In this document: positions 9,273 to 59,420 of the stretch, piece after piece
How the letters are laid out: each line of letters opens with the position of its first letter
How positions within the stretch are numbered: position 1 is the first letter of the stretch
From: Candidatus Saccharimonadales bacterium
GTDB taxonomy: Bacteria > Patescibacteriota > Saccharimonadia > Saccharimonadales > 2-12-FULL-41-12
Reading direction: 5' to 3'
DNA: 64,000 nucleotides
NCBI GenBank assembly: GCA_041600715.1
Contig: JBFIJM010000003.1
Location: 3,345 to 67,344 of the forward strand
Made by a program: the position numbers and the translations under genes
The notes under the pieces: generated by a model
Told to the model about the DNA's origin: nothing
The model's database searches: none
What the model saw: the letters and a program-made list of their open reading frames with translations, nothing else

Positions 9273-9941
9273 ATGAAAAACATCATATGTATATTGGCAT
9301 TAATACTTATTATATGGTCGACGTGTGGTACGTCCAGAGCAGGCTCTTATAGAATCGATCCGTTTACAGGTGAACATCCTATCCGGTCAGAGATCGACAA
9401 TAGAATTTATAAAGTTATCGAATCATATGGTAAGGGTCCAAATGCGGTTGTCGGTGGTATGCCTAAAGACGCTGCGGACACATTGGCCAAGATGAATATT
9501 TTTCTACAAGGTGTCGTTGAATATATGAAGAACAAATATATCATACGCAAGGAAGGTTCTACAAATGATCAAGTTTTTGTAAAGCGGATGGTACGTAGGT
9601 ATAACCCCGATGTTGTTGTTGAAAACAATCCAGAAGGGGTAGAAAATACTAGTTTCGTTGTTAATAAAGGGGATACTATTGCATTTTGCCTGCGAGAGGC
9701 GACCTTTGGGACTGATCAAATCCATCAGATAAAAATATTAAAGTTCGTTGCCCTACACGAGCTTGCCCATATAGGGTCCAAACCATACGGACACGATGCG
9801 ACCTTTTGGTCTGATTTTAAGTTCATACTGCAAAATGCCGCAGAATCTGGTTTGTATAATCCGATCGACTACAATCAATTTCCTGATAGATACTGTGGAA
9901 TTGACATAACTTATAACCCTTTATTTGACGAGGCATTATAA
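9273..9941 (+). CDS. putative secreted or membrane zinc metallopeptidase (HExxH; WLM/DUF45-like context)
   Basis: N-terminal signal-like MKNIICILALILIIWSTCGTSRA; the active-site-like block is ALHELAHIGSKPYGHDATFW. Confidence 0.5.
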   Translation: MKNIICILALILIIWSTCGTSRAGSYRIDPFTGEHPIRSEIDNRIYKVIESYGKGPNAVVGGMPKDAADTLAKMNIFLQGVVEYMKNKYIIRKEGSTNDQVFVKRMVRRYNPDVVVENNPEGVENTSFVVNKGDTIAFCLREATFGTDQIHQIKILKFVALHELAHIGSKPYGHDATFWSDFKFILQNAAESGLYNPIDYNQFPDRYCGIDITYNPLFDEAL

Positions 9942-9956
9942 AAAAAATTGATTTTT
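9940..9956 (+). promoter_or_regulatory. extended early-type module A8-TTGA-T5
   Basis: aaaaaaaattgattttt overlaps the stop of the upstream gene; the TTGA core is 28 nt upstream of the ATG at 9980. Confidence 0.55.
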
Positions 9957-9979
9957 ACGGGACTAGTTAATGCCTTCTT

Positions 9980-10246
9980 ATGTCCAACGACACAAAGACT
10001 TTGGCTGCTTTGGCTGCTTTGACTGCTTTGGCAGAGTTTGCAAATGGAGATGATGTTAGCAACATACTTCTCAAATTTGCCGAGAAATGTGGAAAGCCTG
10101 GATTTGACCTTGTTTCATGTCGAACGTTTCTGCAAACAAGGCCTGGCGCGAATGTTCCTAACCACATAGTATTTATGCTGTTACAGATGTTGGACATCAC
10201 GTCGCAGACTATTCGCGAAACCAATGAGATGATCCAACGATATTAG
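9980..10246 (+). CDS. small hypothetical protein with an Ala/Leu/Thr-rich N-terminal leader
   Basis: 88 aa, MSNDTKTLAALAALTALAEFA... It is preferred over the antisense ORF 9967-10224 because of the sense-oriented TTGA module upstream and the T9 tract downstream. Confidence 0.5.
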   Translation: MSNDTKTLAALAALTALAEFANGDDVSNILLKFAEKCGKPGFDLVSCRTFLQTRPGANVPNHIVFMLLQMLDITSQTIRETNEMIQRY

Positions 10247-19154: not shown

Positions 19155-19613
19155 TTATACACCAAATTTATCAAATAAAGCATCTCCGTTGCTATCATCA
19201 TTGTCGCCATCACTATCGCCGCCATCACTATCGCCGCCATCATCGTCGGCTGATAATTTGGCTCTTATATTAACACCACCACTAACGAGGCTGTTACGCG
19301 TCGAATCCGTTACTTTATTAACTAGATCATCTGCTCCAGCGTTATCGCTTTGACTCTGATAATCCATGCTAATGACACCGTCATGTATAAATAATGTCAA
19401 TAGAGTAAAAACAAACACATAAAATGCAACTCTAAAAATACAGAAAATAGGAGTGTTCTTTTTAGGTGGATACATGTACATTACACATAGCATTAATATA
19501 GATGTTATTAGTATTGCTGTCCAAAAAGTACTGCGAAAAAAACCCCCCAAAAATTTCGTGCCAAACACCCATGTACATGTTTCGTTAATGGCTGAACCCA
19601 AAGTAGCAGGCAT
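19155..19613 (-). CDS. membrane protein with an acidic C-terminal tail
   Basis: Several hydrophobic helices and the tail DDDGGDSDGGDSDGDNDDSNGD; aatatatacgacttagta lies before the ATG. Confidence 0.6.
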   Translation of the reverse strand: MPATLGSAINETCTWVFGTKFLGGFFRSTFWTAILITSILMLCVMYMYPPKKNTPIFCIFRVAFYVFVFTLLTLFIHDGVISMDYQSQSDNAGADDLVNKVTDSTRNSLVSGGVNIRAKLSADDDGGDSDGGDSDGDNDDSNGDALFDKFGV

Positions 19614-20961: not shown

Positions 20962-23900
20962 ATGGACATCTTAATATTTAAACCCCCTGAGAAGAAGACA
21001 GAGGACACTACTAAGCCAGAAAGACAATTATATTATGAAAAATTGGCGGAATCTTCGAATATCGATTCGTACCATTTTGATTTTTTCTACAAAGAAGAGG
21101 TATGGGCCAGCGAAAATCGGATACCTGAAACAAACCTACCTCCGATTTTACTGAATTATATAGTGCAATTTTGCACACCAATCATTCAGAAAGATAAAAA
21201 TACCCCCTCAATTCCTGTACAGAATAAAATGCCTATAAGGGCTATCCACAATAATAGATCTATAATGATCCCATCGAATGAAGTATTTCATGTATCAGGA
21301 CTTTCACTACCATATAGAATTTATAAATACTCTGACCTATCAATTCCTATTTACTCCAGAGATTTAGGTAAACAAATCGCGGGGCTCGGGTACTCAGGCA
21401 TTTTAAGAAGCCATGATAGATATGTCAACGGGATACTTGGTAAATTTATACCGCAATACTTTAATGCTCCTAACATCATATTAAAACCCGACCAACCGGA
21501 AATATTACGTGATCTTATTGGAATTATAAGATACTCTCTGAATTATTTCGAGTCAACCATATCGTTAATGTCTACATATCTGTATCCAGGAGTATCGGCG
21601 GAGATATTTTTACCACCACCTGTGTATAATTATAATACAATCCTCGCCAAACAAACAACCAATCGAGATGATACTATTATTTTTAATAAATTAAATCTCC
21701 TAGGACCATCACATCCCAAAAGCAAGATATTACTATCTAGTATTAAAGCTATTGATGATATGAAAAAATATGATATTCAACAGAATAAACTAACCAGTAA
21801 GGATAGGAATGAACACTTGCTCAAACGTTCAATCGCTCTATCTAAATTCGGAAAAATTCAACTGGATGCCGGTCAGAAAAAAATCGTAGAAATTATCTTC
21901 AAAAGGATCAACTCATCAAAAAAAATAATGACTCCTCAAGTTGTTCTGGATCTAACTGCTGAGATTGAAGAAGGTGATATCAGATCCCTGGCAAAAATAG
22001 AAGGTATGGTTAAAGCCGGGCCTAATTCAAAACTTCTTGAAGCAAAAGACTTTCTTAAGATATCTTCACAAAATATAATATGCCCTCATGTAATTATTAA
22101 GGCAAGATTAATGCAAAATGCATCAAAAAATTCCAAGGTCAACGTCCATGGAGAAATTAGACAGCTGTTAATCGATCAATATTCATTGGTCAACGTGGAT
22201 GAAGGATATTTTTGCCGGATATGTGGGGAACTTCTAGCTGAGAACGAAAATGAAGAGTTAGTGATGTTTCTTGATGGTGATACAAGTGTCAATTTTGAAT
22301 TTGACCATTTAAAAACTGTTGTATGGAAAGAAGTAGCGCATATATTAACATCATTTGTTCGTTTTAAAGACTCTGTTAACCTTAAGATGATTGTTAAATC
22401 TATAACGGATTCTATACGAGAAGAGATAGGATTTATTGAAAGTACTCTACTAAAGATCAGAACGAATAGTAGCGATAATATCAATGATTTGATAGCCATA
22501 TATATAGCTATCTATACATATGCTATTGTGTGTCATATGATTTATAGTAATTATGGTAAAATCACGTTTTCCATCCGCAATTTTGCCCCGGTGAAGGGAG
22601 ATAGAGGCAAAGATAAAAATAAAGACAAGAATAAAGACAAGAATAAAGATAAAAATAAAGATGCCAAGGATGTACCATCCACTATAACAAAGCAAGTTGC
22701 CGACGCAGATGACGCAGATGACGAGGATGACGAGGATGACTCTCCACTCGTAAAGAAAACGGCTAAGAAAAAACTTGGTGGTAAAGAGATTTTACTAGGT
22801 AAAAAAGAAGATAGATTACGTCTTCAGAATATTTTTCAGAACGCCGTGTATCTTATTATTAAATCAAAGAATCCACTAATAAATCGCGTTAATAGTATTA
22901 GCTCTAATACAATACAACCATTATTAATCAAGGCATATAGGTGGGTTTTAACACTAAGAACATCAAAAATAGGTGAGGTTGTTAGAAAATCAGATATGTC
23001 ATACTGGTTGAGTATTGATCCAATTTATCATTACACATATTATATCCATCAGGTTGCCACCATAGCTGGCAAAGAATCGCCAAAGATAACAGATGTCGAT
23101 AAGCTCTTAGGAAAATCAGCCCAAGATATACAAGACCAAAAACTGGATTTATATGAAAATATTATCATACCTGGTCCAGAAACTATTAAAAATAAATACA
23201 TATATGATAGTTTTGTGTATGTAGCTAGGTATTGTAAAGAAAAATTATACAGTAAATCATTAGATTTCCAAGCTATTGATCTACAAAAAGAGTTTGAACA
23301 TATTTGGGCGCTGGAGAAAAATCTTGATGCTCGTAGAGAATTTAGCAAATTACGCTCCAGAGAGATTTATGAAAATAAATTACCTTGGACTCCACATGCG
23401 GTAGATCTCTCAAAAATATATTGCCCCGACGGGAAACTACATAAATTCGATATATACATATACCAACCCCTTGTTAAAGGGGTATTTAAAGGACCAAAAA
23501 AAGAATATACCATGCGACAAGTAGCTGCAAAATTAGAGGATGACGATACAAAATTTATGGAAGCCCTTGGTAAACTTGAAGTCATTGATAAACGATGCTC
23601 AATTTGTGATAGTATTTTATCGAAGACTCGCGAGGGTAATCTTCACCAAGTACTTGCCAAGATTGAGACCATTCAAAATTTCTACAGTTATTATTCGAAT
23701 AAATGCCCAGTAGAAGGTATACATAAATTTGATGTAGGTGATGCATGTGTAAAATGTAAATACACCTCAACTCTGGCTGAGACTAATGATAAAAAATACT
23801 ATGAAAAGTACTTTGGCAAATATAAAAAAAGTCTCGAAGTCGAACAAAAAATCACCTTATCGAAGGGTCAAAGTATTGTTCTAAAAAAACTCAACATGTC

Positions 23901-24711
23901 CCCCGGAAAAAAATATGGAAAATGGCTCCTGGATAATAAGAATATTATGTCCGTCGCTAAGATATTTAACGTCAAGCATAATATCTTATTTAACCTTGGG
24001 CTTAACGAAAACAGATCCTTTCGGGACGTGGAAAACGAGAAAACGAATAGATACATTGATACAACGAAAGGAGATGCTTTGTGGAGAAATCAACACTTAT
24101 ACAACTATTGTTTATTTATACTTCGCAAATATAATTTAATAAAAAATAGCGATAGGGTTATATTAAAGCATACGCTTAAGGATATTCGTACAAAACATAA
24201 ATTTGATCCTTCTAACCTCCCCGAGGTTAATGATGAATTTAATGAAAAGTATAGTTATTATAAAAAAACAGAGACATCAAAGACGTTGTCTAACTTTTTA
24301 TTGGACTTCATGTCAAGAGTATTACTTAAATTGTGGAAGTCGACTGCACCAAAAGCCTTTTCAAAAGATCTCGCTGAGTATTTAATCAACTCCATAATCA
24401 GTACGGAAAAACAAATAAGTAAGCCAGAATCTGATGAAATAGTTGTTTTCTCTAAGCAAGAGTCGTTTGTTGATATGGGATCGTCAAGCGAGGATGAATT
24501 TGAAGATGATGGTAACACAGAAATCCAAGACGCGCCCGATTTTGATGGTACTGAGACTGGATTGGATCGACTCGACGCTTCAAAAATCCAAAGCGCCACT
24601 GATGTTGAGGAAGATCAGGAGTATGAAGGAATAGACGAATTTCAGGCCGATATAGATCTTGACGACGATGATAAAGATAATATCGCTGCAGACGAAGTAT
24701 TTCGCGACTAA
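20962..24711 (+). CDS. large conserved-looking protein of unknown function with several CxxC pairs and an acidic tail. It could correspond to the ASFV M1249L minor capsid protein class, but this is untested.
   Basis: 1249 aa. Cys pairs include CRICGELL, CSICDSIL and CPVEGIHKFDVGDACVKCKY. (KDKN)n lies at 22609-22662. ttatatagtata abuts the ATG. I have no sequence memory of M1249L to compare. Confidence 0.3.
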   Translation: MDILIFKPPEKKTEDTTKPERQLYYEKLAESSNIDSYHFDFFYKEEVWASENRIPETNLPPILLNYIVQFCTPIIQKDKNTPSIPVQNKMPIRAIHNNRSIMIPSNEVFHVSGLSLPYRIYKYSDLSIPIYSRDLGKQIAGLGYSGILRSHDRYVNGILGKFIPQYFNAPNIILKPDQPEILRDLIGIIRYSLNYFESTISLMSTYLYPGVSAEIFLPPPVYNYNTILAKQTTNRDDTIIFNKLNLLGPSHPKSKILLSSIKAIDDMKKYDIQQNKLTSKDRNEHLLKRSIALSKFGKIQLDAGQKKIVEIIFKRINSSKKIMTPQVVLDLTAEIEEGDIRSLAKIEGMVKAGPNSKLLEAKDFLKISSQNIICPHVIIKARLMQNASKNSKVNVHGEIRQLLIDQYSLVNVDEGYFCRICGELLAENENEELVMFLDGDTSVNFEFDHLKTVVWKEVAHILTSFVRFKDSVNLKMIVKSITDSIREEIGFIESTLLKIRTNSSDNINDLIAIYIAIYTYAIVCHMIYSNYGKITFSIRNFAPVKGDRGKDKNKDKNKDKNKDKNKDAKDVPSTITKQVADADDADDEDDEDDSPLVKKTAKKKLGGKEILLGKKEDRLRLQNIFQNAVYLIIKSKNPLINRVNSISSNTIQPLLIKAYRWVLTLRTSKIGEVVRKSDMSYWLSIDPIYHYTYYIHQVATIAGKESPKITDVDKLLGKSAQDIQDQKLDLYENIIIPGPETIKNKYIYDSFVYVARYCKEKLYSKSLDFQAIDLQKEFEHIWALEKNLDARREFSKLRSREIYENKLPWTPHAVDLSKIYCPDGKLHKFDIYIYQPLVKGVFKGPKKEYTMRQVAAKLEDDDTKFMEALGKLEVIDKRCSICDSILSKTREGNLHQVLAKIETIQNFYSYYSNKCPVEGIHKFDVGDACVKCKYTSTLAETNDKKYYEKYFGKYKKSLEVEQKITLSKGQSIVLKKLNMSPGKKYGKWLLDNKNIMSVAKIFNVKHNILFNLGLNENRSFRDVENEKTNRYIDTTKGDALWRNQHLYNYCLFILRKYNLIKNSDRVILKHTLKDIRTKHKFDPSNLPEVNDEFNEKYSYYKKTETSKTLSNFLLDFMSRVLLKLWKSTAPKAFSKDLAEYLINSIISTEKQISKPESDEIVVFSKQESFVDMGSSSEDEFEDDGNTEIQDAPDFDGTETGLDRLDASKIQSATDVEEDQEYEGIDEFQADIDLDDDDKDNIAADEVFRD

Positions 24712-24738: not shown

Positions 24739-25161
24739 ATGACATTGTATCAGGGTGAAGAAAAATATTCTATTGAAAAAATTGTAAATCATTCTGTGCC
24801 CTTTTTTAAATTTCTTCAAGATTCATCGCCAAAAGATCTTCGTAGAGAAATATCATGTTGTGGCATTGCTAACTCTACAGGTGATGCGTTTGACTTCTTT
24901 GTGTCCGTCAACGACGTTGATAAGCAAGAATTGCTCGATAATATGGGATTTTCTAGTCAAGTCATTCAAGTAATACATGTTTTTGAAGTATTCCGAGAGT
25001 CGTTTTTTCGCGAATGCGAAGATGTACTTGGAACAATGTCGATGCAGCGTAGAGATTTATTTGCTGAGTCGCCAAGTAAATATGTAGATTTATACATGGG
25101 ATTAACCAGACAAGAAAAAATAAAAGTTCTTACATGGGCGAGAGCTAAGTCAAGGACTTAA
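24739..25161 (+). CDS. hypothetical protein
   Basis: 140-aa ORF with taatatactca before the ATG. Its last codons are the seed of the downstream repeat array. Confidence 0.5.
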   Translation: MTLYQGEEKYSIEKIVNHSVPFFKFLQDSSPKDLRREISCCGIANSTGDAFDFFVSVNDVDKQELLDNMGFSSQVIQVIHVFEVFRESFFRECEDVLGTMSMQRRDLFAESPSKYVDLYMGLTRQEKIKVLTWARAKSRT

Positions 25162-25250
25162 GAATGCTAAGTCAAGAACTCAAGAATGCTAAGTCAAGAA
25201 CTTAAGAATGCTAAGTCAAGGACTTAAGAATGCTAAGTCAAGGACTTAAT
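25144..25250. repeat. 22-nt tandem array (gctaagtcaaggacttaagaat, 4.8 copies)
   Basis: Unit 1 is the last five codons plus stop (AKSRT*) of ORF 24739-25161. The array fills the gap to the convergent gene at 25252. Confidence 0.95.
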
Positions 25251-25251
25251 G

Positions 25252-26574
25252 CTAAAGCAAAAATTTAATGATGCTCGAAGCAGCGGCCCTACCTAATTTA
25301 GTCCTGACACGATCAATATTTGCTAACTTAGTCAATGTATCGTCATCACCAGGCATAGTCAGTAATTCTATCATACTATATTTAGTAAGTATAATTTCAG
25401 CGGTGTCTCTACTTATAAGAGGAATGCAGCTTATAATTCGCGCATATGTTCTTTGAGATGTACGTAGGTGTGGTTTTTGTATCTGTAATATTTTTTTAGC
25501 CCTCTCGCCGATGATTGCTCCGGTTGGGTAGCGTAAAGTTGATATATCTTCATATTGTAGCTCCCCCAATATCATCTGCTTTATTGTGTATTTTTTATCT
25601 ATGAACAAACTAGATGTCCTATCCGTTACATTGGTAATTGCATTCCACATTTTATAAGTAATCTCCAGGTCGGTTTTAATTATTCTTTCACGTAGTCTAT
25701 CCTCATTGGATCCACCTTCGACTGTGCTGACTTTTTGGTCACACTTCGATGTGCTGACTTTTTGGTCACACTTCGATGTGCTGACTAGCACCGACTGTAT
25801 CGGCTTGCCCTTATATTCATCACCTCCTTTAGCTCCACATTCATCATAGATGACATCCCCATCACCACCCTGATCCTCATCAAGAGCTTTATTAATCAAT
25901 ATAAATGGACTAGGGGCCAATGTTCCATAGTTCTTAGCTATCTCCATCACTCGCATAGCCGTATATTTCTTATCTTTAGAGTAAAAAACACTCATTTTGT
26001 CACGCAATACTACATGATCTAGATGAGATCTTAAGTCTTTATATCGTTTACCACCCACATATCTTAACGGGTCGGGACACGGATTACCCTCAATTAAATA
26101 TGCACAATCGCTACCAATTTCCTTACTAAACTCGACAAGACGTTTATTATTTCCTCTTCGACTATCCGTAAAGGTTTGCGATAGGTCTTTCCATGTTTTT
26201 CGCTCGATGATAAGAAGTATTCTTCCTCTATATGCGATAGCGTAATCTCCATCGCGTAGGGTTGCAATTTCATACGGTATGTTTTTGTCCTTAATTTCTT
26301 TATAGGCAAAGAATGGGATTACTTCAAACTCTCTGTAGTCGATGAGAATATATAATCCATCCTTAGATATTGGCAAACTTTTGGACTCTTCCGACGAAAC
26401 CAAGTCTTCGTCGCTACCATCATCGTTATCACTATCACTCACAAATGATGGTTTAGATTTTTGTTTATTATACTTGGGCTTGGGCTTGGGCTTGGGCTTG
26501 GGCTTGGGCTTGGGCTTGGGCTTGGGCTGAGCTCGAATGCCCTTAGACGCGAGTAGTCTTTTATTTTCAGACAT
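25252..26574 (-). CDS. ERCC4 (XPF/Mus81)-type structure-specific nuclease (ASFV EP364R class)
   Basis: YILIDYREFE ... LRDGDYAI ... LLIIERKTWKDLSQTFTDSRRGNNKRL is the GDx(n)ERKx3D signature. A C-terminal HhH-like segment reads IPLISRDTAEIILTKY. The N-terminus carries (PK)n. Confidence 0.8.
   Translation of the reverse strand: MSENKRLLASKGIRAQPKPKPKPKPKPKPKPKPKYNKQKSKPSFVSDSDNDDGSDEDLVSSEESKSLPISKDGLYILIDYREFEVIPFFAYKEIKDKNIPYEIATLRDGDYAIAYRGRILLIIERKTWKDLSQTFTDSRRGNNKRLVEFSKEIGSDCAYLIEGNPCPDPLRYVGGKRYKDLRSHLDHVVLRDKMSVFYSKDKKYTAMRVMEIAKNYGTLAPSPFILINKALDEDQGGDGDVIYDECGAKGGDEYKGKPIQSVLVSTSKCDQKVSTSKCDQKVSTVEGGSNEDRLRERIIKTDLEITYKMWNAITNVTDRTSSLFIDKKYTIKQMILGELQYEDISTLRYPTGAIIGERAKKILQIQKPHLRTSQRTYARIISCIPLISRDTAEIILTKYSMIELLTMPGDDDTLTKLANIDRVRTKLGRAAASSIIKFLL
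26473..26526. repeat. (cttggg)9 coding (PK)n in the nuclease N-terminus
   Basis: Direct reading. Confidence 0.95.
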
Positions 26575-27180: not shown

Positions 27181-27699
27181 ATGAATACGGTAGCTGCAAA
27201 ATTTAAAGAGCAATTTAACCAGGTGCAAATAGCATATCTGGTTCAAAAATGCCGATGTGACTCAAGCACATGTACTAAATTAGGTCATTGGAGATATGAA
27301 CGTGAGGATGGCAAAATGGCTCCGATACCGTCTGGAAGATGTCTCACTTGTGGGTTACGACGCAGAAAGGTACTTGATGGAGATAATATAGATTGTTGTA
27401 TTACTTTCTACAAAAGTTTCCGCGACTGCGATGGATTCGAAGAAGGGTCAGAAAAAAATTACATATATTTTAACAATCAATTCCCTCCTCGGTGCTCATT
27501 AGACTGGTTTAAAACTCCGACATTTATTAGTATTGATGACGAAGTGCCGATAGTCGGATCGAGCTTTAGACCCGATCGTTCCATCGGATCGAGCTTTAGA
27601 CCCGATCGTTCCATCGGATCGAGCTTTAGACCCGATCGTTCCATCGGATCGAGCTTTAGACCCGATCGTTCATGTCATCCGGGTTACGTTCGTCAGTAG
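27181..27699 (+). CDS. Cys-rich hypothetical protein with a (GSSFRPDRSI)x4 tail
   Basis: 172-aa ORF. Its tail is encoded by the 30-nt array that overlaps the convergent gene. Confidence 0.5.
   Translation: MNTVAAKFKEQFNQVQIAYLVQKCRCDSSTCTKLGHWRYEREDGKMAPIPSGRCLTCGLRRRKVLDGDNIDCCITFYKSFRDCDGFEEGSEKNYIYFNNQFPPRCSLDWFKTPTFISIDDEVPIVGSSFRPDRSIGSSFRPDRSIGSSFRPDRSIGSSFRPDRSCHPGYVRQ
27555..27673. repeat. 30-nt tandem array (cggatcgagctttagacccgatcgttccat, 4 copies)
   Basis: The last copy contains the stop codon and final codons (..DRV*) of the minus gene 27656-29263. Confidence 0.95.
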
Positions 27700-29263
27700 T
27701 CATATGATTCCGCATGTATTTTGACCCAATCTTACCAGCATGTCGATTAGCTGTTGTATCCCTACCAAACTCTCCATCTAATCTAGTCGATTTAACGTTC
27801 ATATTTTCGCGGTCAAGTCGACCACCTCGCCGTTGATTACGTTGCTTCGAACTATTTCCATATGACTCGAATGCATGCCGGGGCATATTTGATTTATTAC
27901 TAGGTCGAGCGGCGTGACTAAAGTTAAAAGTCTTTTTTTCCTCGCCCTTAATATGAACAGTGTTCGACTTACGTTTATCATTAATAACGTCGCCAAATTT
28001 TGTATTACTTGTCCCAGGTGCTTGCTCTAAAAATAACTCATGCTTGCTCGAAGAATCGATTATATTTTCCCTTAAATCTTTTCGCTCCCTCTTCGTCATC
28101 TTCTTATTAACACCAACGAGAGTTTTAAAGATCTTTTGATTGATGATTGTTTTCCCCATTTTCTGGTCCAGCGTAGGCGCCCGTTGTTGAAGATTACCCT
28201 GCTCGCCGCCCAGTTCAGCATGTGCTGATTTACTTTGGGTTATGTCAGATTTTCGAGAGTTTTCGCCGACCATCATTTCTTGAATCATTTGTTTTTTTTG
28301 GTTCATCCTCTCCATTGACTTCGCGAAGTCAATGGTGTTTCTTTCCTTGGCTAATGTTCTTCGACGTTCGGCGGTTGTATCTATGATGGCAATGGCTGTG
28401 GCGAATTGGACCGGCTTATCCTCAATACTAATAAAAATATCGTGATCAAAATAAGCACCGCGCCTATTTTGATACCAATCTTTGTCAGCATCGACGTTGT
28501 GGGACTTCATAATGCCATACTTGGCAACCTTAAATCTCTGATCAGATGTCGACCTCCATCCAATCGGGATATCGTTCGACCCTGCTGTGGTATGACCAAT
28601 ACGAGTCCGGAGGGTCGGCCCTTCTTGGGCGAATTCAGTGTCTCCAACCGTGTCGAGCACCGATGATTTCTTGATCAAAGGTATTTGAACCGACGAACCA
28701 TTGTGCCAACCTACACGGGCGGTCTCAAAAATCTTCATTCTATCCTTAACCCAGTGCCGAGATTGGGCTAGCTGCCGTACGACATCTGCAGGATGCCACC
28801 CCTTTTCAGGAATAGAATGATCATGATCTGGATAAAATTTAATATATTTAGCCCTGGCATATTGTTGATCGACATGTTTCCGCATGTCAGGTTGATACAT
28901 TATACTTCGTGGCTCGACGTCTTTACCTGGCCCGACGAATTGATGATCTAGGAAGGTACCATCTGGTAGCCATGGCTCTGCTTCTGAGCGGCGACCACCA
29001 TGTCTTAATTCTAATACACCGTAACTTTGATATCCTCGAGTACGTGCAGGGGTACTTTTACCATTTTCATCGACTTCATATTCCATTCCACCACGAATTT
29101 GATCTGATTCTAACGTAGGTGCAACCGGTCGAAAATCACTTAATTCTTGTCGCATATGGTTTTCTATCTGATCAGGGTCTTCGAATAGACATGTTTTCTC
29201 ATGCTTACGGTATAACATATCTTCAGGCATAAGCCCATATTGTCCAACTATTGAATCTCCCAT
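27656..29263 (-). CDS. hypothetical basic protein (535 aa), GC-richer than its surroundings
   Basis: Long uninterrupted ORF with no motif I can name. Confidence 0.6.
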   Translation of the reverse strand: MGDSIVGQYGLMPEDMLYRKHEKTCLFEDPDQIENHMRQELSDFRPVAPTLESDQIRGGMEYEVDENGKSTPARTRGYQSYGVLELRHGGRRSEAEPWLPDGTFLDHQFVGPGKDVEPRSIMYQPDMRKHVDQQYARAKYIKFYPDHDHSIPEKGWHPADVVRQLAQSRHWVKDRMKIFETARVGWHNGSSVQIPLIKKSSVLDTVGDTEFAQEGPTLRTRIGHTTAGSNDIPIGWRSTSDQRFKVAKYGIMKSHNVDADKDWYQNRRGAYFDHDIFISIEDKPVQFATAIAIIDTTAERRRTLAKERNTIDFAKSMERMNQKKQMIQEMMVGENSRKSDITQSKSAHAELGGEQGNLQQRAPTLDQKMGKTIINQKIFKTLVGVNKKMTKRERKDLRENIIDSSSKHELFLEQAPGTSNTKFGDVINDKRKSNTVHIKGEEKKTFNFSHAARPSNKSNMPRHAFESYGNSSKQRNQRRGGRLDRENMNVKSTRLDGEFGRDTTANRHAGKIGSKYMRNHMTTDERNPDDMNDRV

Positions 29264-29440: not shown

Positions 29441-30208
29441 TTAGCAAAGACCAAATCCGTCGCCGCCGTCGCCGTCGTCGTCGTAGTCGTCGCCGTCGTC
29501 GTCGTCGTAGTCGTCGCCGTCGTCGTCGTCGTCGTCGTGGATGTAGATGCACCACTGGAAAAGTTCATCCTCAGTAAATAGCGCGTTTTCGTCGTTTGGA
29601 ACAGGAAAACTACCAAAATTGCAATATTGCCTTTCAGAGTCCAGTTCCCATTCAAAATGACCACTTTCAGAGGAAGTATCCATCAACTTGACAACTTCAT
29701 ATAATGCTTTACCAATTGACTTGTTATCTTCCATCGTAGTCTTACATGGTCCATTATTCCGATGAAAAAGTCTGATACAGAAAGGTACGAACAATCTATC
29801 GTATGTTTTTTGGAGATCTTCCCGATGCATGTTAACTATGACCAACGCTTCTGCATGCGTCATGTTGCAAGGATACATGTTGTCTTTGGGATCATTCGAT
29901 TTCCAACAGGCTAAAGTATGCCTTCCACTACGGCATCGTGGATCAACACAATATGAATGGTCATCTTGAATCCATATGGGGAAGACGGTAGAGGAGGTGG
30001 TAGAGGAGGTGGTAGAGGTGGTAGAGGTGGTGGTGGTGGTAGAGGTGGTGGTGGTGGTGGTGGTGGTAGAGTTGATGGTAGAGTAGTAGGTGGTGGCGGT
30101 GGTAACGGTGGTGGTGGTGGTGGTGGTGGCGGGGTCTTGAACCCCGGAAGCGGGCGCCGCGAGGGCGGGGGCTTGGGCCGTAGCCAGCGAAACGATAGTG
30201 GTAGCCAT
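29441..30208 (-). CDS. mucin-like Thr-rich protein with a Cys-containing domain and poly-Asp tail; member of the leader family
   Basis: MATTIVSLATAQAPALAAPA.. is followed by about 45 aa of Thr/Ser and ends DDDDDDGDDYDDDDGDDYDDDGDGG. The ORFs 29271-29664, 29957-30508 and 29961-30239 are shadows. Confidence 0.6.
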   Translation of the reverse strand: MATTIVSLATAQAPALAAPASGVQDPATTTTTTTVTTATTYYSTINSTTTTTTTTSTTTTTSTTSTTSSTTSSTVFPIWIQDDHSYCVDPRCRSGRHTLACWKSNDPKDNMYPCNMTHAEALVIVNMHREDLQKTYDRLFVPFCIRLFHRNNGPCKTTMEDNKSIGKALYEVVKLMDTSSESGHFEWELDSERQYCNFGSFPVPNDENALFTEDELFQWCIYIHDDDDDDGDDYDDDDGDDYDDDGDGGDGFGLC

Positions 30209-30227
30209 CGTCAGGCATTACTAACGC

Positions 30228-30248
30228 AAAAAAAATCATTTTTTTTTT
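30228..30248 (-). promoter_or_regulatory. A10-TGA-T8 (sense) combined terminator and promoter module
   Basis: The plus strand reads aaaaaaaatcatttttttttt, between the stop of 30267-30896 and the ATG at 30208 (core 27 nt upstream). Confidence 0.55.
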
Positions 30249-30266
30249 GCAATAGTAATAAGTCGT

Positions 30267-30896
30267 CTATACAACCGCATCGTTTGACAGCAACTGATAC
30301 CACGGATCAGCATTGCGTCTGCACTGAATCGCTCTGGCAGTCCCCTCGTGGCATATACATAAATCGACACCGGAACAACTACATCTACATGTTACGCTAT
30401 TACCATTGCATGTGCACGCCAGTATTTGCATCCTGCCGGGACATTTCCATTCGTTACATGCTTGACATATGGATAACGGGCATATGTCAAGCAGGGGCTG
30501 CGGATTGAATCCTGGGCGACGATCATCAAAATGACCCATAGCCATAGTCATTTGACACGGATATTGTGACCATCTGCTCAGTATGTAGATTGTCTTTCCC
30601 AACCCCAATCTCATATGTTTCCTATCTGCGTGTATCTGTTTATATCGGTCAGGTTTAGCATGTGAGTTGGAGAGAAACGTTCGTCGGTCCTGCATTGCTA
30701 CAGCTAAAGCAATACAGAATTCCGTAAATGTTTGACTCGTTTTGTCGACAGGTTTGACATAATCGGAGTCATAACCGGAGGCATGGTCTCCCCAAGAGGG
30801 TATAGCTGGCTTTCCCAAAAGGAATTCACTTTTGTCGCTATAGTCCGCGGAGGCGCTGGCTTGGGCCGTAGCCAGCGAAACGATAGTGGTAGCCAT
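30267..30896 (-). CDS. Cys-rich protein; paralogous leader family member
   Basis: It starts MATTIVSLATAQASASA (13 aa identical to the neighbour). The C-terminus has 17 Cys (CPLSICQACNEWKCPGRMQILACTCNGNSVTCRCSCSGVDLCICH). Confidence 0.6.
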   Translation of the reverse strand: MATTIVSLATAQASASADYSDKSEFLLGKPAIPSWGDHASGYDSDYVKPVDKTSQTFTEFCIALAVAMQDRRTFLSNSHAKPDRYKQIHADRKHMRLGLGKTIYILSRWSQYPCQMTMAMGHFDDRRPGFNPQPLLDICPLSICQACNEWKCPGRMQILACTCNGNSVTCRCSCSGVDLCICHEGTARAIQCRRNADPWYQLLSNDAVV

Positions 30897-30915
30897 CGTC
30901 AGGCATTACTATTGC

Positions 30916-30933
30916 AAAAAAAATCAATTTTTT
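30916..30933 (-). promoter_or_regulatory. A-rich-TTGA-T8 (sense) module
   Basis: The plus strand reads aaaaaaaatcaatttttt, 27 nt upstream of the ATG at 30896. It sits in the 46-nt divergent gap shared with the gene at 30943. Confidence 0.55.
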
Positions 30934-30942
30934 ATTTATATA

Positions 30943-31515
30943 ATGCGACGTAGACGGAGACTATTATTATTGGCACTTCCCCTGCCATTCATAGCATTAA
31001 TTCCGTTTAATGGCGTCGAATATGTTCGAGATTTCCGAGTTCATACTCCTTTAATAATGCTTGCAATTTATTCGGTGTTGCTTAATTTTCCTTCTATCGT
31101 AAAGTCTTACTACGGTAAACCAGTTTATTATGAAGACTTAGAAGACGATCGATATGTTAATGTTGCATATCGCAAAAAGTTTCAGGCAGTTTTTATAACG
31201 ATAGGTCAACTTTGTTTATCATTTATGTTCGCAAGTCTTATTTACTACTATATACACAAATATCACATAAATAGATTTAACGTACTCGAATTATGTGGAA
31301 TCATAGGTGGTTTTATGAGCTTCATATCGAGGATCTTTAGCGGGATTAAATTTGTGCTTAAAACGTGCTATTATATAAAAAAAAATACGTCAACTACTCT
31401 TAATAGTTCCAAGAAATACAAAATATTGTTCAAGATGAGTGACATTGATATTGGATCTACACATGACCAAAATCAAGACATTATAGATCTGGAAGGGGTC
31501 GAGGCAGTTAAATAG
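30943..31515 (+). CDS. multi-pass membrane protein
   Basis: The first ATG is at 30943 (MRRRRRLLLLALPLPF..) with atttatata before it; there are at least 3 hydrophobic helices. Confidence 0.55.
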   Translation: MRRRRRLLLLALPLPFIALIPFNGVEYVRDFRVHTPLIMLAIYSVLLNFPSIVKSYYGKPVYYEDLEDDRYVNVAYRKKFQAVFITIGQLCLSFMFASLIYYYIHKYHINRFNVLELCGIIGGFMSFISRIFSGIKFVLKTCYYIKKNTSTTLNSSKKYKILFKMSDIDIGSTHDQNQDIIDLEGVEAVK

Positions 31516-33353: not shown

Positions 33354-34640
33354 ATGAACGTCATTAAATATCTCAATGACCTTAAATTTGTGGAAAATGA
33401 GGCTCATATTAGTTCTATAATAGCTAGTTTTTACGAGTACGGTATAAAAGTTAGCTATGATATGGAAACTAAACCTTCAAGATTTATATTTTCTGCTATG
33501 AAGAAATTCAGAACAGGTGGGATAATTGATACATATATATCCGAATGCAATGGACTAATCTTGTCACCACCTCTTGGTAAAAAAAATAAGTCTTGGAGTA
33601 TAATATCTTATCCACCGTGCACATATAGAAGCGTTGTATCTGTAGATGTTATGAATAAATATCTAGCTCAAGGCATGTATAGTGTTTATGAAATAATGGA
33701 GGGTACAATAATTACTTACTACTATTTTAATTCAGCGTGGCGAATGTCAACAACCAATGGAATTGATGTAAGTGATGTTAAATGGGATGGAAAATCATAC
33801 AAGGACGCATTTACCGAATGTCTAGTCCATATCGGTATAACTCGGGAAATCCTAGAAGCGTCTCTTGATAAATCTACATGTTATACATTTGGATTTAAGC
33901 ACCCCCATCGACACCCCTTTTATGAAGGTGGTCAACCCATATATAATGTTTGGTTTGTCCAGGGGCGTAATATAAAAACACTAAAACTAGAAGGTTTTAA
34001 GTTAATACCCGAGCAAAAAAAAGTTTTGGATTGCCCAACGAATATACGAGATTTATTCAAGAAATTAGCGTCGTCTATAGACGACTTTGATAAAGATAAA
34101 ACTGTTCTTTACGGGTACATTCTTAGGTCAAACAAATTAGGGGTGACTTATAAGTCGGTTATGTTAGAGAGCAGATTACTCACAACGATTCGGAAGTTAT
34201 ATTATCAGAGTTGTTTTAATAAGTTATCAAGACAAATGGAGATCGAGAGGGTTCGATTTATATGTTTATATTCTTATTTACAAATACAGATTAGACCAGT
34301 TTTCATCAAGTATTTTCCGCAGTTCACTGAGAAATTCGCAGAGTTCGATCGGATAACAAGTGACCTCGTTGATGCTGTCGTAAAAATCATCTCCACTTCA
34401 GAGACAGAGGCGAAAAGTATTCAGCCGACCGTAGAAGATCAAGGTCAAGGGCGATCTGACAAATTCGACAGTAGTCTGCGCAGCGAAGAAGAACCTAAAA
34501 AGGTATATGCCAGACAAATATTATCTTCTATGGGTAAAATTATGTCTTTAAAAGAGGATAAGATTACACGTAAAAAAATAAGAGAATATATATGCGATCC
34601 TATATATTTGGCAATTTATGACGCTTTATCTACAGAATAG
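33354..34640 (+). CDS. hypothetical protein with a weak ligase/capping-enzyme nucleotidyltransferase-like pattern but no obvious catalytic Lys. ASFV M448R class is possible but untested.
   Basis: ISECNGLIL sits where KxDG would be; MEGTIITYYYFNSAW resembles motifs III and IIIa. This is pattern only. Confidence 0.3.
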   Translation: MNVIKYLNDLKFVENEAHISSIIASFYEYGIKVSYDMETKPSRFIFSAMKKFRTGGIIDTYISECNGLILSPPLGKKNKSWSIISYPPCTYRSVVSVDVMNKYLAQGMYSVYEIMEGTIITYYYFNSAWRMSTTNGIDVSDVKWDGKSYKDAFTECLVHIGITREILEASLDKSTCYTFGFKHPHRHPFYEGGQPIYNVWFVQGRNIKTLKLEGFKLIPEQKKVLDCPTNIRDLFKKLASSIDDFDKDKTVLYGYILRSNKLGVTYKSVMLESRLLTTIRKLYYQSCFNKLSRQMEIERVRFICLYSYLQIQIRPVFIKYFPQFTEKFAEFDRITSDLVDAVVKIISTSETEAKSIQPTVEDQGQGRSDKFDSSLRSEEEPKKVYARQILSSMGKIMSLKEDKITRKKIREYICDPIYLAIYDALSTE

Positions 34641-42825: not shown

Positions 42826-43887
42826 TTACTGAGGAAGGGACGCAACGAGATCATTCTTGCGCTTTTTCAAATCATTAAGTTGCTGCGGAATAGCTGCGAA
42901 TTTTGATTGGAGTAATGTGAAACCAGACTGAGTCAAGTTATATTGAGCGGTAACACTTTCGAGTTTTCGTTCAGACACCGCAAGAATACCAATGTGGTAT
43001 TGTCTTCTCGCAGTCACCACCAACTCGGCCTGAGTAACGGCTGCCTGAGCGTTAACATATGCTTGACTGCTCCAAAAGGTGTTCTTCAGCGTATTCAACT
43101 CATCGACAGACTGTTTGAGCAAATACATAGCCTGATCAGACTTACCAAACAGAGCAATGCCGTGTGCGAGCAATGAGCTCGCATTGGCCATATTTTGGAT
43201 ACACTTGACGTACTCATCGCTCGTTTGAAACTGAACCAACATGTTATGCAAGACAAGCTGAGCCTCATCGACGTCGCCGATACACTCGCGCATAACCTGA
43301 TCGCACGTCAAGAGAAGACGATTGTGTTTGCGTTCAGCAGACTTCCTATCATGTGCATGTCGGTTCAAGGCATCGCGGATTTCTTCCGATACAGCTTGCT
43401 GAATATACACGTTCTTTATGTCGGTTTCCAGGCTGGTTAACTGGCGCCAGACGACACAAGACTGAATGGGCAAAGTTGGTGGTGCATTTGGAACAGGGGA
43501 GCGAGGAAGAGGAGGAGGTGATTGAGAGCGAGGAAGAGGAGGTGATTGAGAGCGAGGAAGAGGAGGTGGTAGACGGTGGGAGGTCCGGAGTAAGTCAAGA
43601 AAGTGCTTAACATCGCTAGCAACACTCGCATGGATAGGATATTTCCTATCGATTGTGTTAATGTCCTGAGTATGTGCGATCGAAGAGGAGATCGGAGAGG
43701 AGATCGGAGAGGGTATGGAAGGAGAATATGTCGCTACACGAGACAAATCCAAAATAGATTTGGCGAGTTCCGCGCGTTTTTCCTCGGAACTTCGGGAATC
43801 TTCGCCATCCGGTACCTTACCGACCGGAGGCGTGGCGGCATGGCCAGAAATAAATTTCTGGTCACCGAAAGCAGCTTGAGCAGACAT
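42826..43887 (-). CDS. hypothetical helical protein with a Pro/Ser repeat (PPLPRSQS); leader family; GC-rich
   Basis: The track start is a TTG at 43923; the ATG at 43887 gives MSAQAAFGDQKF... The extended TTGA module lies upstream. Confidence 0.6.
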   Translation of the reverse strand: MSAQAAFGDQKFISGHAATPPVGKVPDGEDSRSSEEKRAELAKSILDLSRVATYSPSIPSPISSPISSSIAHTQDINTIDRKYPIHASVASDVKHFLDLLRTSHRLPPPLPRSQSPPLPRSQSPPPLPRSPVPNAPPTLPIQSCVVWRQLTSLETDIKNVYIQQAVSEEIRDALNRHAHDRKSAERKHNRLLLTCDQVMRECIGDVDEAQLVLHNMLVQFQTSDEYVKCIQNMANASSLLAHGIALFGKSDQAMYLLKQSVDELNTLKNTFWSSQAYVNAQAAVTQAELVVTARRQYHIGILAVSERKLESVTAQYNLTQSGFTLLQSKFAAIPQQLNDLKKRKNDLVASLPQ

Positions 43888-43921
43888 CACTAATAAAGTG
43901 GTCCGGTAAGCGTTAATTAGC

Positions 43922-43951
43922 AAAAAAAAATCAATTTTTTTTTAAAAAAAA
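43922..43951 (-). promoter_or_regulatory. T8 + A9-TTGA-T9 (sense) terminator and promoter module
   Basis: The plus strand reads aaaaaaaaatcaatttttttttaaaaaaaa, between the stop at 43981 and the ATG at 43887. Confidence 0.55.
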
Positions 43952-43980
43952 CGGAGTATAATATGTGGTGAATACCAAAC

Positions 43981-44832
43981 CTAAGAACGATGTATCGCAA
44001 GGAACGGAGTTTTTAGCAGCTCATTATAAAGCTTTTGTTTTTCTGCGAGACGTTGCTGGGCTTCCGATTGCCTAACTTGAGCGTCCTCCGAACAACTGTT
44101 GCATCTTCGAAATGCAGCCAGGTCACGGCCTACCTCTGCATTGAGCTCGGTTATGCGTTTTTGGTGACGATCATTGGCATCGGTCAAAAATCCCTTCGCT
44201 AACACCACAGCATCATGGGCAGTCACAACACGCGGGTCAGTGTCATTGCCGCAGCATTGCTGGGCACGTTCTAAGAATCGAATATCGCCATCTAGCTTTG
44301 CTTGAAGTTTTTTTAACTCTTCGGAACAAACAGCTGGGTAATTAGTTAGCTTAGTTTGAGAACTATTGAGAACATGCGCGGCTGCAACCAGTTCCTTCTG
44401 ACGGGCCATAAAATGTTCAGTACAATTGCACTCATCTAAATGGGCATACCGCATGGCTCGCAATGCATTCGCAACTTGCACCCCGAACCCTTTGATTTCC
44501 TGGAGGGTTGGGATATCAGGAGTTGCGGCGATGGACGACGTGGTGGGGGACGACGTGGGGGAGGACGACGTGGTGGGGGACGACGTGGGGGAGGACGACG
44601 TGGGGGAGGACGACGTGGTGGAGGACGACGTGGGGGGAGAATTGGAGTGTTTGCGATCTAATCCAGAGTCTTGGTCAGTTCGCACGATATTTCGTGCGAT
44701 ATTCAAATCTTTCTGAAGATCTGCTCCCCGGGTAGTGATAGGAGGACGAGTGCTTGGGTCAGCACCCGTGGAAGCAGGTCGCGCGGAGGCGCTACCGAGG
44801 GTCGAAGGCTGAACAATGGTGAGACTTGCCAT
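43981..44832 (-). CDS. hypothetical helical, Cys-containing protein with an (SSPT) repeat; leader family; GC-rich
   Basis: MASLTIVQPSTLGSASARPASTGADPSTRPPITTRG.. The ORFs 44426-44735 are shadows of the repeat. Confidence 0.6.
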   Translation of the reverse strand: MASLTIVQPSTLGSASARPASTGADPSTRPPITTRGADLQKDLNIARNIVRTDQDSGLDRKHSNSPPTSSSTTSSSPTSSSPTSSPTTSSSPTSSPTTSSIAATPDIPTLQEIKGFGVQVANALRAMRYAHLDECNCTEHFMARQKELVAAAHVLNSSQTKLTNYPAVCSEELKKLQAKLDGDIRFLERAQQCCGNDTDPRVVTAHDAVVLAKGFLTDANDRHQKRITELNAEVGRDLAAFRRCNSCSEDAQVRQSEAQQRLAEKQKLYNELLKTPFLAIHRS

Positions 44833-44847
44833 CGAACTTTATTGATT

Positions 44848-44868
44848 AAAAAAAATCAATTTTTTTTT
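44848..44868 (-). promoter_or_regulatory. A9-TTGA-T8 (sense) module
   Basis: The plus strand reads aaaaaaaatcaattttttttt; the core is 23 nt upstream of the ATG at 44832 and downstream of the stop at 44906. Confidence 0.55.
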
Positions 44869-44905
44869 AAAGAATTTTTCGGTCTTTTGTATTTGTACAA
44901 TCATA

Positions 44906-46021: not shown

Positions 46022-46639
46022 CTACATAAATTTTTTACTCCCAATGTACCGAGACATGATGCGATAATTCATGTAGCTACATACTAATATTTTTGCCAGG
46101 GCAAAGTCGATCTGTATGATCGCTATCCAGATAGCTATCATGTAGTACATTGCATCGGATATAAAATTACCATTCGCAATAATAAATACACCAGTGCGAG
46201 TGTAGTCAGATATTATTTTTTGCTTGTGGTCGTATAGGTTATTGGTCATCCAAGGATAAATTGTTTCTTCCCTGTATGTTTCGAACGCTGAGAAAATCGC
46301 CAAAAATATATGCGTTGCTATGTATATGGGCCATGTATCAACCTTTAACCATAAAATGTGGAGATCGGGTCCCGGACCAAATCGGACATATGTCGAATTT
46401 AGATCCGACCGCATCATGAATGGGATAAATATAAGTACAATAAGTAGTAGGTTGAATATTGTAATATTGACATATTTGGTTTCTTTTTTTATAGAGGAAT
46501 GATCATTGAACTGACCTGATTGAGTATTAATTTGAATAGCTACGTCGTCTGATCCATCAGAATATTCCCCACTTGAGTGTCTAGACCCCTGGTTACTTGA
46601 GCTAGGGATTGGTGACCATTCTCTTTCAATATCAGACAT
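46022..46639 (-). CDS. multi-pass membrane protein
   Basis: 205 aa with four hydrophobic segments. Confidence 0.6.
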   Translation of the reverse strand: MSDIEREWSPIPSSSNQGSRHSSGEYSDGSDDVAIQINTQSGQFNDHSSIKKETKYVNITIFNLLLIVLIFIPFMMRSDLNSTYVRFGPGPDLHILWLKVDTWPIYIATHIFLAIFSAFETYREETIYPWMTNNLYDHKQKIISDYTRTGVFIIANGNFISDAMYYMIAIWIAIIQIDFALAKILVCSYMNYRIMSRYIGSKKFM

Positions 46640-46650
46640 TATTATGGTGA

Positions 46651-46720
46651 GTTGAATGTTTAATGTTGAATGTTGAATGTTGAATGTTGAATGTTGAATG
46701 TTGAATGTTTAATGTTGAAT
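46651..46720. repeat. heptamer array (gttgaat / gtttaat, 10 units) in the 5-prime leader region of gene 46022-46639
   Basis: Direct reading. It lies between the AAAAATTGA motif (46726-46734, minus sense) and the ATG at 46639. Confidence 0.95.
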
Positions 46721-46725
46721 GTCTT

Positions 46726-46734
46726 TCAATTTTT
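46726..46734 (-). promoter_or_regulatory. AAAAATTGA motif
   Basis: The plus strand reads tcaattttt, 4 nt after the stop of the upstream gene (46739) and 86 nt upstream of the ATG at 46639. Confidence 0.4.
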
Positions 46735-47462: not shown

Positions 47463-48239
47463 ATGCCAGACGTTAAAATTTATACTAAAACCGGCGATAC
47501 AGGTAAAACTACTCTATTCGGTAATGATAACAAATATTCTAAATCCGACAGTGTATTCGATTTAATGGGAGGCATTGACGAAGTTAATGCAGGACTAGGC
47601 CTACTTACATATCAAGTTCGGGCATTAAAACAATACTGGAATAAACATACAATATACTTGTTAGGCCTAATCATATTCTGCGGATTCGCTTCTTGCTGTA
47701 TATCACATATATATACTGGCAAAATCGACCCTTCATATTTAACACCTATTGTATTGATGTGGTTTGCAAGTATTTTTGTCTTTGAGTACAGTAGCTGTCA
47801 GTCAAAGAAATTTACAAAAATAGAAGATGTACTATTAATGATTCAAGAGAAAAATGTTAATCTTCTAAGTCATATTAGTAATCCTGACCGTGTTCGGTTC
47901 ATAGGTGGTGCTGAAATCGTCAAGATAATGGAAGAAGAAATTGACACGATAACTGCGATACTTCCAAAATTAACTAATTTTATCCTGGTGTATAAATCGA
48001 AAGAGTCTGCTTGGTGCAACGTTACACGTACAATTGTTCGTCGAGTAGAACGAGAACTTTCTAGATATTGTCTTGAGCACAAATCGTTGAACACTGAATG
48101 TCTGCCATATATGAACCGCATGTCTGATTATCTATTCACTGTTGCCAGATGTATTGATAATGATCAGTGGTCGCCGCCGACTAACTATTATCATGCTGTG
48201 TCTGGACGCAATGGAAAGAGTGTTAAAAAAAATAAGTAA
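47463..48239 (+). CDS. PduO-type ATP:cob(I)alamin adenosyltransferase (MMAB-like) with a hydrophobic insertion of about 50 aa
   Basis: KIYTKTGDTGKTTLFG, GGIDEVNAGLG, LPKLTNFIL, TRTIVRRVERE and YMNRMSDYLFTVAR match the family blocks. The insert is IYLLGLIIFCGFASCCISHIY...IVLMWFASIFVF. Confidence 0.75.
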   Translation: MPDVKIYTKTGDTGKTTLFGNDNKYSKSDSVFDLMGGIDEVNAGLGLLTYQVRALKQYWNKHTIYLLGLIIFCGFASCCISHIYTGKIDPSYLTPIVLMWFASIFVFEYSSCQSKKFTKIEDVLLMIQEKNVNLLSHISNPDRVRFIGGAEIVKIMEEEIDTITAILPKLTNFILVYKSKESAWCNVTRTIVRRVERELSRYCLEHKSLNTECLPYMNRMSDYLFTVARCIDNDQWSPPTNYYHAVSGRNGKSVKKNK

Positions 48240-51538: not shown

Positions 51539-52054
51539 TTAGATTTGATCAGGCATATCCATCTCATTAACATCCCATACTTCGGCTAACGCGCTATTCA
51601 ACATTCTCATTATCGACAACGGACACTTCCGGTCTTTTACCTCTTTCTCGGCCTTTTGGATAGGGTTTAATGACGGGTCAACATCTGTAAAGACAACCCC
51701 CGTTGGGTTTGATTGTATATGTTTAGCTCTGATAGATATAATTTCAGTGTACTCATATCTAGACATTATATCAGATGTTTTCCTCTTGTCGCGAGTTACA
51801 ACTACAACCTCTCGGATTGCCTCAGGTACATACTTAATGGGATTATATACATGGAACGGAATTCCATGGTATGGTTCTTGACCGTGTTCGGTAGAATCGG
51901 ATAGTGGGGGGGAAGTTACTATTGAAGCCTTCAACTGGCGCGTTGCTGATTTACCTTTACTTTCTTGCCTTGGTTTACTTGGACTCTTTGCCGTAGGACT
52001 CTTTACCTTAGAACTCTTCGCCGTAGGGGCAGCTGATGTTTTCTTGACAGGCAT
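51539..52054 (-). CDS. RNA polymerase subunit RPB6 (ASFV C147L class)
   Basis: MSRYEYTEIISIRAKHIQ...NPIQKAEKEVKDRKCPLSIMRML..EVWDVNEM parallels MTKYERARVLGTRALQI...IAMKELKARKIPIIIRRYL..EDWGVDEL. Confidence 0.8.
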   Translation of the reverse strand: MPVKKTSAAPTAKSSKVKSPTAKSPSKPRQESKGKSATRQLKASIVTSPPLSDSTEHGQEPYHGIPFHVYNPIKYVPEAIREVVVVTRDKRKTSDIMSRYEYTEIISIRAKHIQSNPTGVVFTDVDPSLNPIQKAEKEVKDRKCPLSIMRMLNSALAEVWDVNEMDMPDQI

Positions 52055-59290: not shown

Positions 59291-59420
59291 ACTATATATC
59301 AGCCGATTATACTATATATCAGCCGATTATACTATATATCAGCCGATTATACTATATATCAGCCGATTATACTATATATCAGCCGATTATACTATATATC
59401 AGCCAATTATACTACATCAG
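59291..59420. repeat. 20-nt tandem array (actatatatcagccgattat, 6.5 copies) abutting the ATG at 59290
   Basis: Direct reading. In gene sense each unit ends ..gatatatagt, and the proximal unit supplies the TATA-like box before the ATG. Confidence 0.95.

Follow-up and report, generated by a model that had tools for sequence, protein, structure and literature searches.

The early transcription units of ASFV are among the closest described counterparts of the gene pair analysed here. In ASFV, the cEPM lies 15–16 nt upstream of the TSS, which carries a TA initiator (PMC8906413), early 5′ UTRs have a median length of 14 nt, and the RNA polymerase terminates at runs of at least 7 T (both PMC7163114). 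The AAAATTGA motif is also found in pacmanvirus and Mimiviridae (PMC8906413, PMC7163114, PMC11788076); in pacmanvirus it is the early motif of 44% of genes and stands beside a TATATA late motif (PMC11788076).

We analysed a 64-kb stretch of DNA (the window, meaning the whole of this stretch) in which two adjacent minus-strand genes, gene 1 and gene 2, begin with nearly the same segment. Conserved leaders on unrelated or hypervariable mature parts are known from conotoxin precursors and from oomycete RXLR/CRN effectors. In mimivirus, mRNA 3′ ends reportedly follow a ‘hairpin rule’, which Byrne et al. are said to have described in 2009.

Compared with the ASFV early promoter (EPM), the locus has the same core, a core-to-TA(A) spacing of ~15–18 nt and a very short predicted 5′ UTR; as in ASFV and pacmanvirus, runs of at least 7 T past stop codons and TATATA late promoters are found alongside the early motif. 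A difference from the ASFV EPM is that the promoter itself includes the T8 run, which is placed between core and initiator and takes part in an A-run/T-run palindrome. As in the conotoxin, RXLR and CRN proteins, a conserved N-terminal module gives way abruptly, close to where the leader ends, to divergent bodies, but those are large families of proven secretion, whereas here there is one pair and secretion is putative. The pair also recalls ASFV MGF110, whose tandem genes are early and encode Cys-rich proteins that are secreted or reside in the ER: here too are tandem early-promoter genes, one Cys-rich member and a shared N-terminal leader that is possibly secretory (PMC8906413). MGF110 members, however, are homologous over their full length, whereas genes 1 and 2 share their first 17 codons only, and no Pfam model, that of family 110 included, matched either protein at E ≤ 0.01.

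Genes 1 and 2 in an asfarvirus-like contig

By its gene content, the window (GC ~37%) is identified as a contig of an uncultured asfarvirus-like (Asfuvirales) giant virus. This lineage is assigned because the window encodes an NCLDV major capsid protein (651–2135; best solved relatives Faustovirus MCP, 1e-85, and ASFV p72, 1e-69), a C962R-type primase-helicase (AEP_C962R) and a 1249-aa homologue of ASFV M1249L (ORF 20962–24711, plus strand; PDB 8xy6_I, 6e-20). An A32 ATPase is encoded as well. The window further contains four tandem repeats, mostly intergenic: 20 nt ×8 with TATATA in each unit (59269–59428), 22 nt ×5 (25144–25253), GTTGAAT ×~13 between a AAAATTGA motif and the ATG of ORF 46022–46639 (46637–46727), and 30 nt ×~5 where two convergent ORFs overlap at their 3′ ends (27554–27701).

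The two genes of interest are as follows.

29441–30208, minus strand: gene 1, a 255-aa orphan with the shared leader, a Thr-rich stretch, a 9-Cys central domain and a poly-Asp tail
30267–30896, minus strand: gene 2, a 209-aa orphan with the shared leader and a C-terminal 14-Cys region

Both ORFs begin with MATTIVSLATAQA. The cysteines of the second protein number 14, not the 17 first counted. Neither body has a recognizable relative: a PDB sequence search of both found none, a search among 5.8 billion clustered proteins returned self matches only, and no paralogue or cross-frame source of either body was found elsewhere in the window. A full HMMER scan of 1.84 billion representatives with gene 2 likewise yielded the self match and no accepted homologue; the one further hit, a 1960-aa protein (P0004), was judged spurious, being internally repetitive and carried by summed weak scores. 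AlphaFold single-sequence models of the two proteins are of low confidence (pLDDT 39 and 43).

Public annotation gives gene 2 as read here, and for gene 1 just a 140-aa product from an internal Met (MTHAEAL...). We prefer 255 aa for gene 1 in view of its promoter at −35 and its shared leader; the central domain of gene 1 has a codon score of 0.22 per codon, in the normal coding range (training mean 0.29). The frame of an upstream ATG was rejected as the coding frame of gene 1 (codon score −0.53). Also set aside was a plus-strand shadow ORF (29957–30508), which is Gly-rich, lacks a promoter motif and crosses the promoter palindrome described below.

The neighbourhood of the pair differs among relatives. 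Next to gene 1 lies a 535-aa ORF (27656–29263, minus strand) of a conserved family of unknown function with ~87 environmental homologues. A 117-kb relative keeps the order ERCC4 nuclease ... 535-aa gene ... 832-aa gene ... D5 primase; the gap there is filled by different genes (ankyrin, phosphatase), and the 535-aa gene is inverted relative to the D5 primase when the two contigs are compared. The genes between the 535-aa gene and the 815-aa gene vary among relatives, and genes 1 and 2 are absent from the 50%- and 46%-identical relatives too. Because this place is occupied by other genes in relatives that conserve the flanking ones, we regard it as a variable island and the pair as lineage-specific.

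The shared 5′ segment and its early-type promoter

The 53-nt identity reported in the earlier note occurs at exactly two sites in the window, 30171–30223 and 30859–30911, where shuffles expect 0, and the true perfect run is 54 nt long. This run lies inside an ungapped 92-nt block, 91% identical between the two genes, and every one of the 8 mismatches flanks the 54-nt core. The unit therefore measures ~92 nt rather than the 80 nt first given, weaker identity reaching codon 17–18 on one side and the 5′ edge of the A-run on the other. Random placement of 8 mismatches over 92 positions gives an uninterrupted match of at least 53 with a probability of 0.006, so the core is significantly better preserved than its flanks. 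The limits of the block are the 5′ edge of the promoter and a second AxA motif of the leader peptide (codons 15–17). The block and its elements are listed below.

30845–30936, minus strand: copy B of the cassette, at the 5′ end of gene 2; candidate early promoter, T8, initiator, predicted ~11-nt UTR and codons 1–17
30157–30248, minus strand: copy A of the cassette, at the 5′ end of gene 1; 92-nt block
30858–30911, minus strand: perfect 54-nt core of copy B; TAGTAATGCCTGACG, then codons 1–13
30170–30223, minus strand: perfect 54-nt core of copy A; identical to that of copy B
30924–30931, minus strand: early-promoter core AAAATTGA of gene 2; exact, matching the ASFV cEPM AAAATTGAAT (PMC8906413)
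30236–30243, minus strand: variant core AAAAATGA of gene 1; differs by one base
30906–30908, minus strand: putative TAA initiator of gene 2 with predicted transcription start at A30907 or A30906; ASFV spacing
30218–30220, minus strand: putative TAA initiator of gene 1 with predicted transcription start at A30219 or A30218; ASFV spacing

A promoter, a 5′ UTR and the first 13 codons had been read in the repeat, and this reading is supported, with weaker identity running on past codon 13 to codon 17–18. In the minus-strand sense, the sequence upstream of gene 2 is AATAAAAAATTGA-TTTTTTTT-GCAATAG-TAATGCCTGACG-ATG and that upstream of gene 1 is A10-TGA-TTTTTTTT-GCGTTAG-TAATGCCTGACG-ATG. The core of the cassette promoter is of a known type, the AAAATTGA early motif that also occurs in ASFV, pacmanvirus and mimivirus (PMC8906413, PMC11788076).

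Use of this motif is widespread in the window. Either AAAATTGA or AAAAATGA stands 25–51 nt before the ATG in 13 of 56 ORFs, 12 of the 16 exact AAAATTGA copies are at promoter positions, and AAAAATGA is found at promoter distance also before ORFs 6093–7286, 33354–34640 and 47463–48239; TATATA occurs near the ATG of ~25 other ORFs. In nearly all promoter-located copies, a TAA follows AAAATTGA by 15–19 nt, and it forms an invariant column in an alignment of the five most similar promoters. The transcription starts listed above are predicted because this TAA spacing fits the ASFV cEPM–TSS rule; a 5′ UTR of ~11 nt is predicted in both genes, and both are presumably transcribed early. Genes for D6/A7-like early transcription factors were not identified in the window. 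The shared 5′ leader has no significant RNA structure (z = −0.03 to −2.35) and no Rfam family.

An out-of-frame ATG lies inside TAATGCCT, exactly 10 nt before the main ATG, at 30904–30906 (gene 2), 30216–30218 (gene 1) and 9970–9972, and would be at +2 of the mRNA if the start site is as predicted. In ORFs 19155–19613 and 51539–52054, the ATG within TAATGCCT is the real start codon, so the main ATG of genes 1 and 2 is treated as a putative start. One possibility is that the upstream ATG, conserved in three genes, is a translational control device.

On its other side, gene 2 is separated by a 46-nt divergent intergenic region (30897–30942) from a plus-strand membrane-protein ORF (30943–31515). 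This region holds the early-type promoter of gene 2 on the minus strand and, on the plus strand, a TATATA-ATG late-type promoter serving the membrane-protein ORF; the duplicated block ends just before that TATATA.

At least five genes have in common a promoter and initiator architecture of an A-run, TTGA, T5–9, a spacer of 4–7 nt and TA(G)T(T)AAnGC; besides genes 1 and 2, these are the ORFs that begin at 9980, 43887 and 44832. The three further promoters are as follows.

9941–9982, plus strand: related promoter/initiator block; A8TTGAT5, 7 nt, TAGTTAATGCCT, 4 nt, then the ATG of an 88-aa ORF
43888–43953, minus strand: same subclass before ORF 42826–43887; A-run, TTGA, T9, GCTAATTAACGC
44833–44875, minus strand: same subclass before ORF 43981–44832; A-run, TTGA, T8

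A UTR block related to that of the pair had been noted before the ATG at 9980. The block, TAGTTAATGCCT (9964–9975), is present, and given an architecture common to at least five genes, it belongs to a promoter subclass; its likeness to the cassette is one of promoter and initiator, not of the coding leader, which is common to genes 1 and 2 only. The subclass core, AAAAAATTGATTTTTTTT, is also found in the contig of the closest relative.

One of these ORFs, 43981–44832 (minus strand, 283 aa), has a Ser/Thr/Pro-rich stretch behind its A-run/TTGA/T8 promoter, and its N-terminus (MASLTIVQPSTLGSASARPAS...) is weakly like that of gene 1, 38 of 2000 shuffles scoring as well. The likeness is no more than suggestive, and the ORF is possibly a third, remote member of this group.

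Leader peptide and gene junction

At the N-terminus, 15 of 17 residues are identical between the two proteins, with MATTIVSLATAQA exact. Both proteins have AxA motifs at residues 11–13 and 15–17, the homology block ends exactly past the second of these, and bodies that are Thr-rich and mucin-like in one protein and Cys-rich in the other would suit the secretory pathway. Cleavable signal peptides of eukaryotes have a hydrophobic core of about 7–15 residues and, after it, small residues at −3 and −1. The leader has no charged n-region, and its best 9-residue hydropathy is 1.47, against 2.4–3.9 for the clear signal or anchor sequences in the window. The targeting role proposed for the cassette is thus no more than putative: despite the AxA motifs, hydropathy is moderate, and the leader is weakly hydrophobic. 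That the shared peptide is a cleavable signal peptide is a tentative reading, to which we give slightly less than an even chance.

Between the two genes, the 3′ end of gene 2 meets the promoter of gene 1, and the following elements fall at or near this junction or in the matching part of the gene 2 promoter.

30916–30923, minus strand: T8 between promoter core and initiator, gene 2 copy
30228–30235, minus strand: T8, gene 1 copy, 32 nt past the gene 2 stop; putative poly-T terminator of gene 2
30217–30259, no strand assigned: palindrome with an 18-bp stem spanning the gene 2 3′ end and the gene 1 promoter; −23 kcal/mol, z = −5.5

The 3′ end of gene 2 has what characterizes ASFV poly-T terminators, namely at least 7 T soon after the stop. 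Such runs are ~3-fold enriched in the intergenic DNA of the window, and 21 of them lie on the sense strand at most 80 nt downstream of a stop codon. Because the T8 of copy A sits 32 nt past the stop in an ASFV-like manner, the gene 2 transcript probably ends there, and the T8 of the gene 1 promoter probably doubles as the gene 2 terminator.

The palindrome, strong and just past a stop codon at a tandem-gene junction, resembles what the mimivirus hairpin rule describes. It differs in that this is an asfarvirus-like virus, for which poly-T termination is documented, and in that hairpins occur at few junctions of the window. Weaker A-run/T-run hairpins are found at two more tandem-gene junctions with the same promoter subclass (43911–43953 and 44841–44875). 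One arm of the palindrome (30241–30259) is the exact reverse complement of 30905–30923, a segment of the gene 2 leader, and this exact inverted copy hints at template switching in an A/T-run quasi-palindrome as the copying mechanism.

Origin of the shared 5′ end

Several lines of evidence bear on how two genes came to share their 5′ ends. First, a core without mismatches between flanks that have decayed (P about 0.006) indicates recent duplication or a gene-conversion tract. Second, 13 codons are identical at every synonymous site and adjoin bodies without detectable similarity, so the identity of the 5′ ends must have arisen long after any ancestor that the bodies may have in common. Two histories are suggested by the decay of the flanks: a young conversion tract within a 5′ region shared for longer, or a young duplication of which a selected core has been kept.

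The explanation that we favour, and hold to be rather probable, is recent copying of the ~92-bp 5′ segment between adjacent genes whose bodies are otherwise unrelated. Either a local duplication or a short tract of gene conversion would have copied the segment, which would comprise an ASFV-type early promoter in full (A-run, AAAATTGA core and T8) along with a TAA initiator, the ~11-nt UTR and 17 codons. Two unrelated lineage-specific orphans would thereby be transcribed early, from equivalent promoters, and an identical Ala/Thr-rich peptide, MATTIVSLATAQA-x-A-x-A, would head both proteins, possibly as a cleavable signal peptide of the weak kind. The T8 and palindrome of the downstream copy, just past the stop of the upstream gene, would probably also serve as the terminator of that gene. 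In this scheme, the sequence itself shows the repeat and where it stops, the promoter motif and its positions across the window, and two bodies that are unrelated orphans; we infer the direction and mechanism of copying, secretion, the transcription start, early timing and termination at the T8.

An older relationship is the alternative that survives best, although we consider it unlikely. Genes 1 and 2 could be old tandem paralogues in the style of ASFV multigene families, their bodies diverged and their 5′ ends kept identical by repeated gene conversion or by strong selection on promoter and leader. They are same-strand neighbours, cysteines occur in both, the decayed homology around a perfect core suggests a long-shared 5′ region with more recent conversion inside it, and ASFV MGF genes are likewise tandem, early and equipped with their own EPM promoters (PMC7163114). 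Yet the bodies differ in length, composition and Cys pattern, and neither has a homologue from which a profile could be built. Past residue 17, BLASTP, a three-frame comparison and DNA alignment (sensitive BLASTN) found no similarity, as the earlier note had held in calling the downstream proteins unrelated. It had also named identity through the whole genes as the sign of a plain tandem pair; identity is confined to the 5′ ends, and because it stops short of the gene bodies, the genes are not a plain paralogue pair.

Less probable again is a reading in which one ORF, with gene 2 the likelier, is no established protein-coding gene but a proto-gene or decaying ORF that arose when the cassette was copied beside other DNA; the shared peptide would then lack a function of its own. 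The codon score of gene 2 falls from 0.36 in the first third, where it supports coding, to 0.02 and −0.22 in the Cys-rich remainder, below all training windows, and this drop, together with the empty search among 1.84 billion representatives and the low-confidence structure model, would fit such an origin. A Cys-rich composition alone, however, skews codon scores; an open frame of 209 codons would arise by chance at a rate of ~2e-5 per frame at the base composition of the window (a rough estimate), and gene 2 has a canonical promoter and a T8 past its stop.

At a similarly low level of credence we place a broader reading, in which the cassette would be a portable unit for early expression plus a secretion leader, repeatedly recombined onto new ORFs in this lineage, its ends being the A/T-run quasi-palindrome and the cleavage site. 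If true, this would provide a concrete route for the birth of giant-virus orphans with immediate expression and routing. A dispersed repeat or mobile promoter element would come in many copies; there are 2 in 64 kb and 0 in three public collections. No third copy of the 53-mer exists within the window, and a window-wide repeat search found no other dispersed repeat of this kind, the rest being tandem or codon-repeat low complexity. Queries with the leader, exact and codon-degenerate, had no match in viral, metagenome and prokaryote contig collections, the promoter-plus-UTR block was not found among viral and metagenome contigs, BLAST of the locus against a phage database gave no match, and no analogous 5′ duplications were seen at the loci of relatives. 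Because there is a single pair, the general modular shuffling proposed in the earlier note is not supported.

Finally, an assembly artefact, in which two strain variants of one locus were joined in tandem via the 54-mer, is very improbable. In its favour, the assembly is of metagenome type, a single record contains the contig, and the only independent contig (Logan, SRR29257383; 100% identical to the window) ends at 29502, short of the repeat, but a mis-joined or collapsed repeat is disfavoured by flanks that have diverged on both sides of both copies and by a gene 2 3′ end that enters its own distinct palindromic junction, not the downstream flank of gene 1, unlike in a variant collapse.

Recent local copying of the 5′ segment thus remains the preferred reading, and its elements are known ones: an ASFV-type early promoter/terminator unit combined with partial 5′ gene duplication or conversion is no novel system. 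Giant-virus genomes consist in large part of orphan genes, whose origin is under debate. The weight of the present case is modest, as it is a single local event. The pair is nonetheless a clean, datable case in which a promoter, start codon and N-terminal peptide would have been copied onto an unrelated frame in a variable island. It extends the early-promoter grammar of ASFV and pacmanvirus (AAAATTGA, TAA initiator, poly-T) to an uncultured distant relative, and it illustrates a route to early expression for an ORF that is new or foreign.
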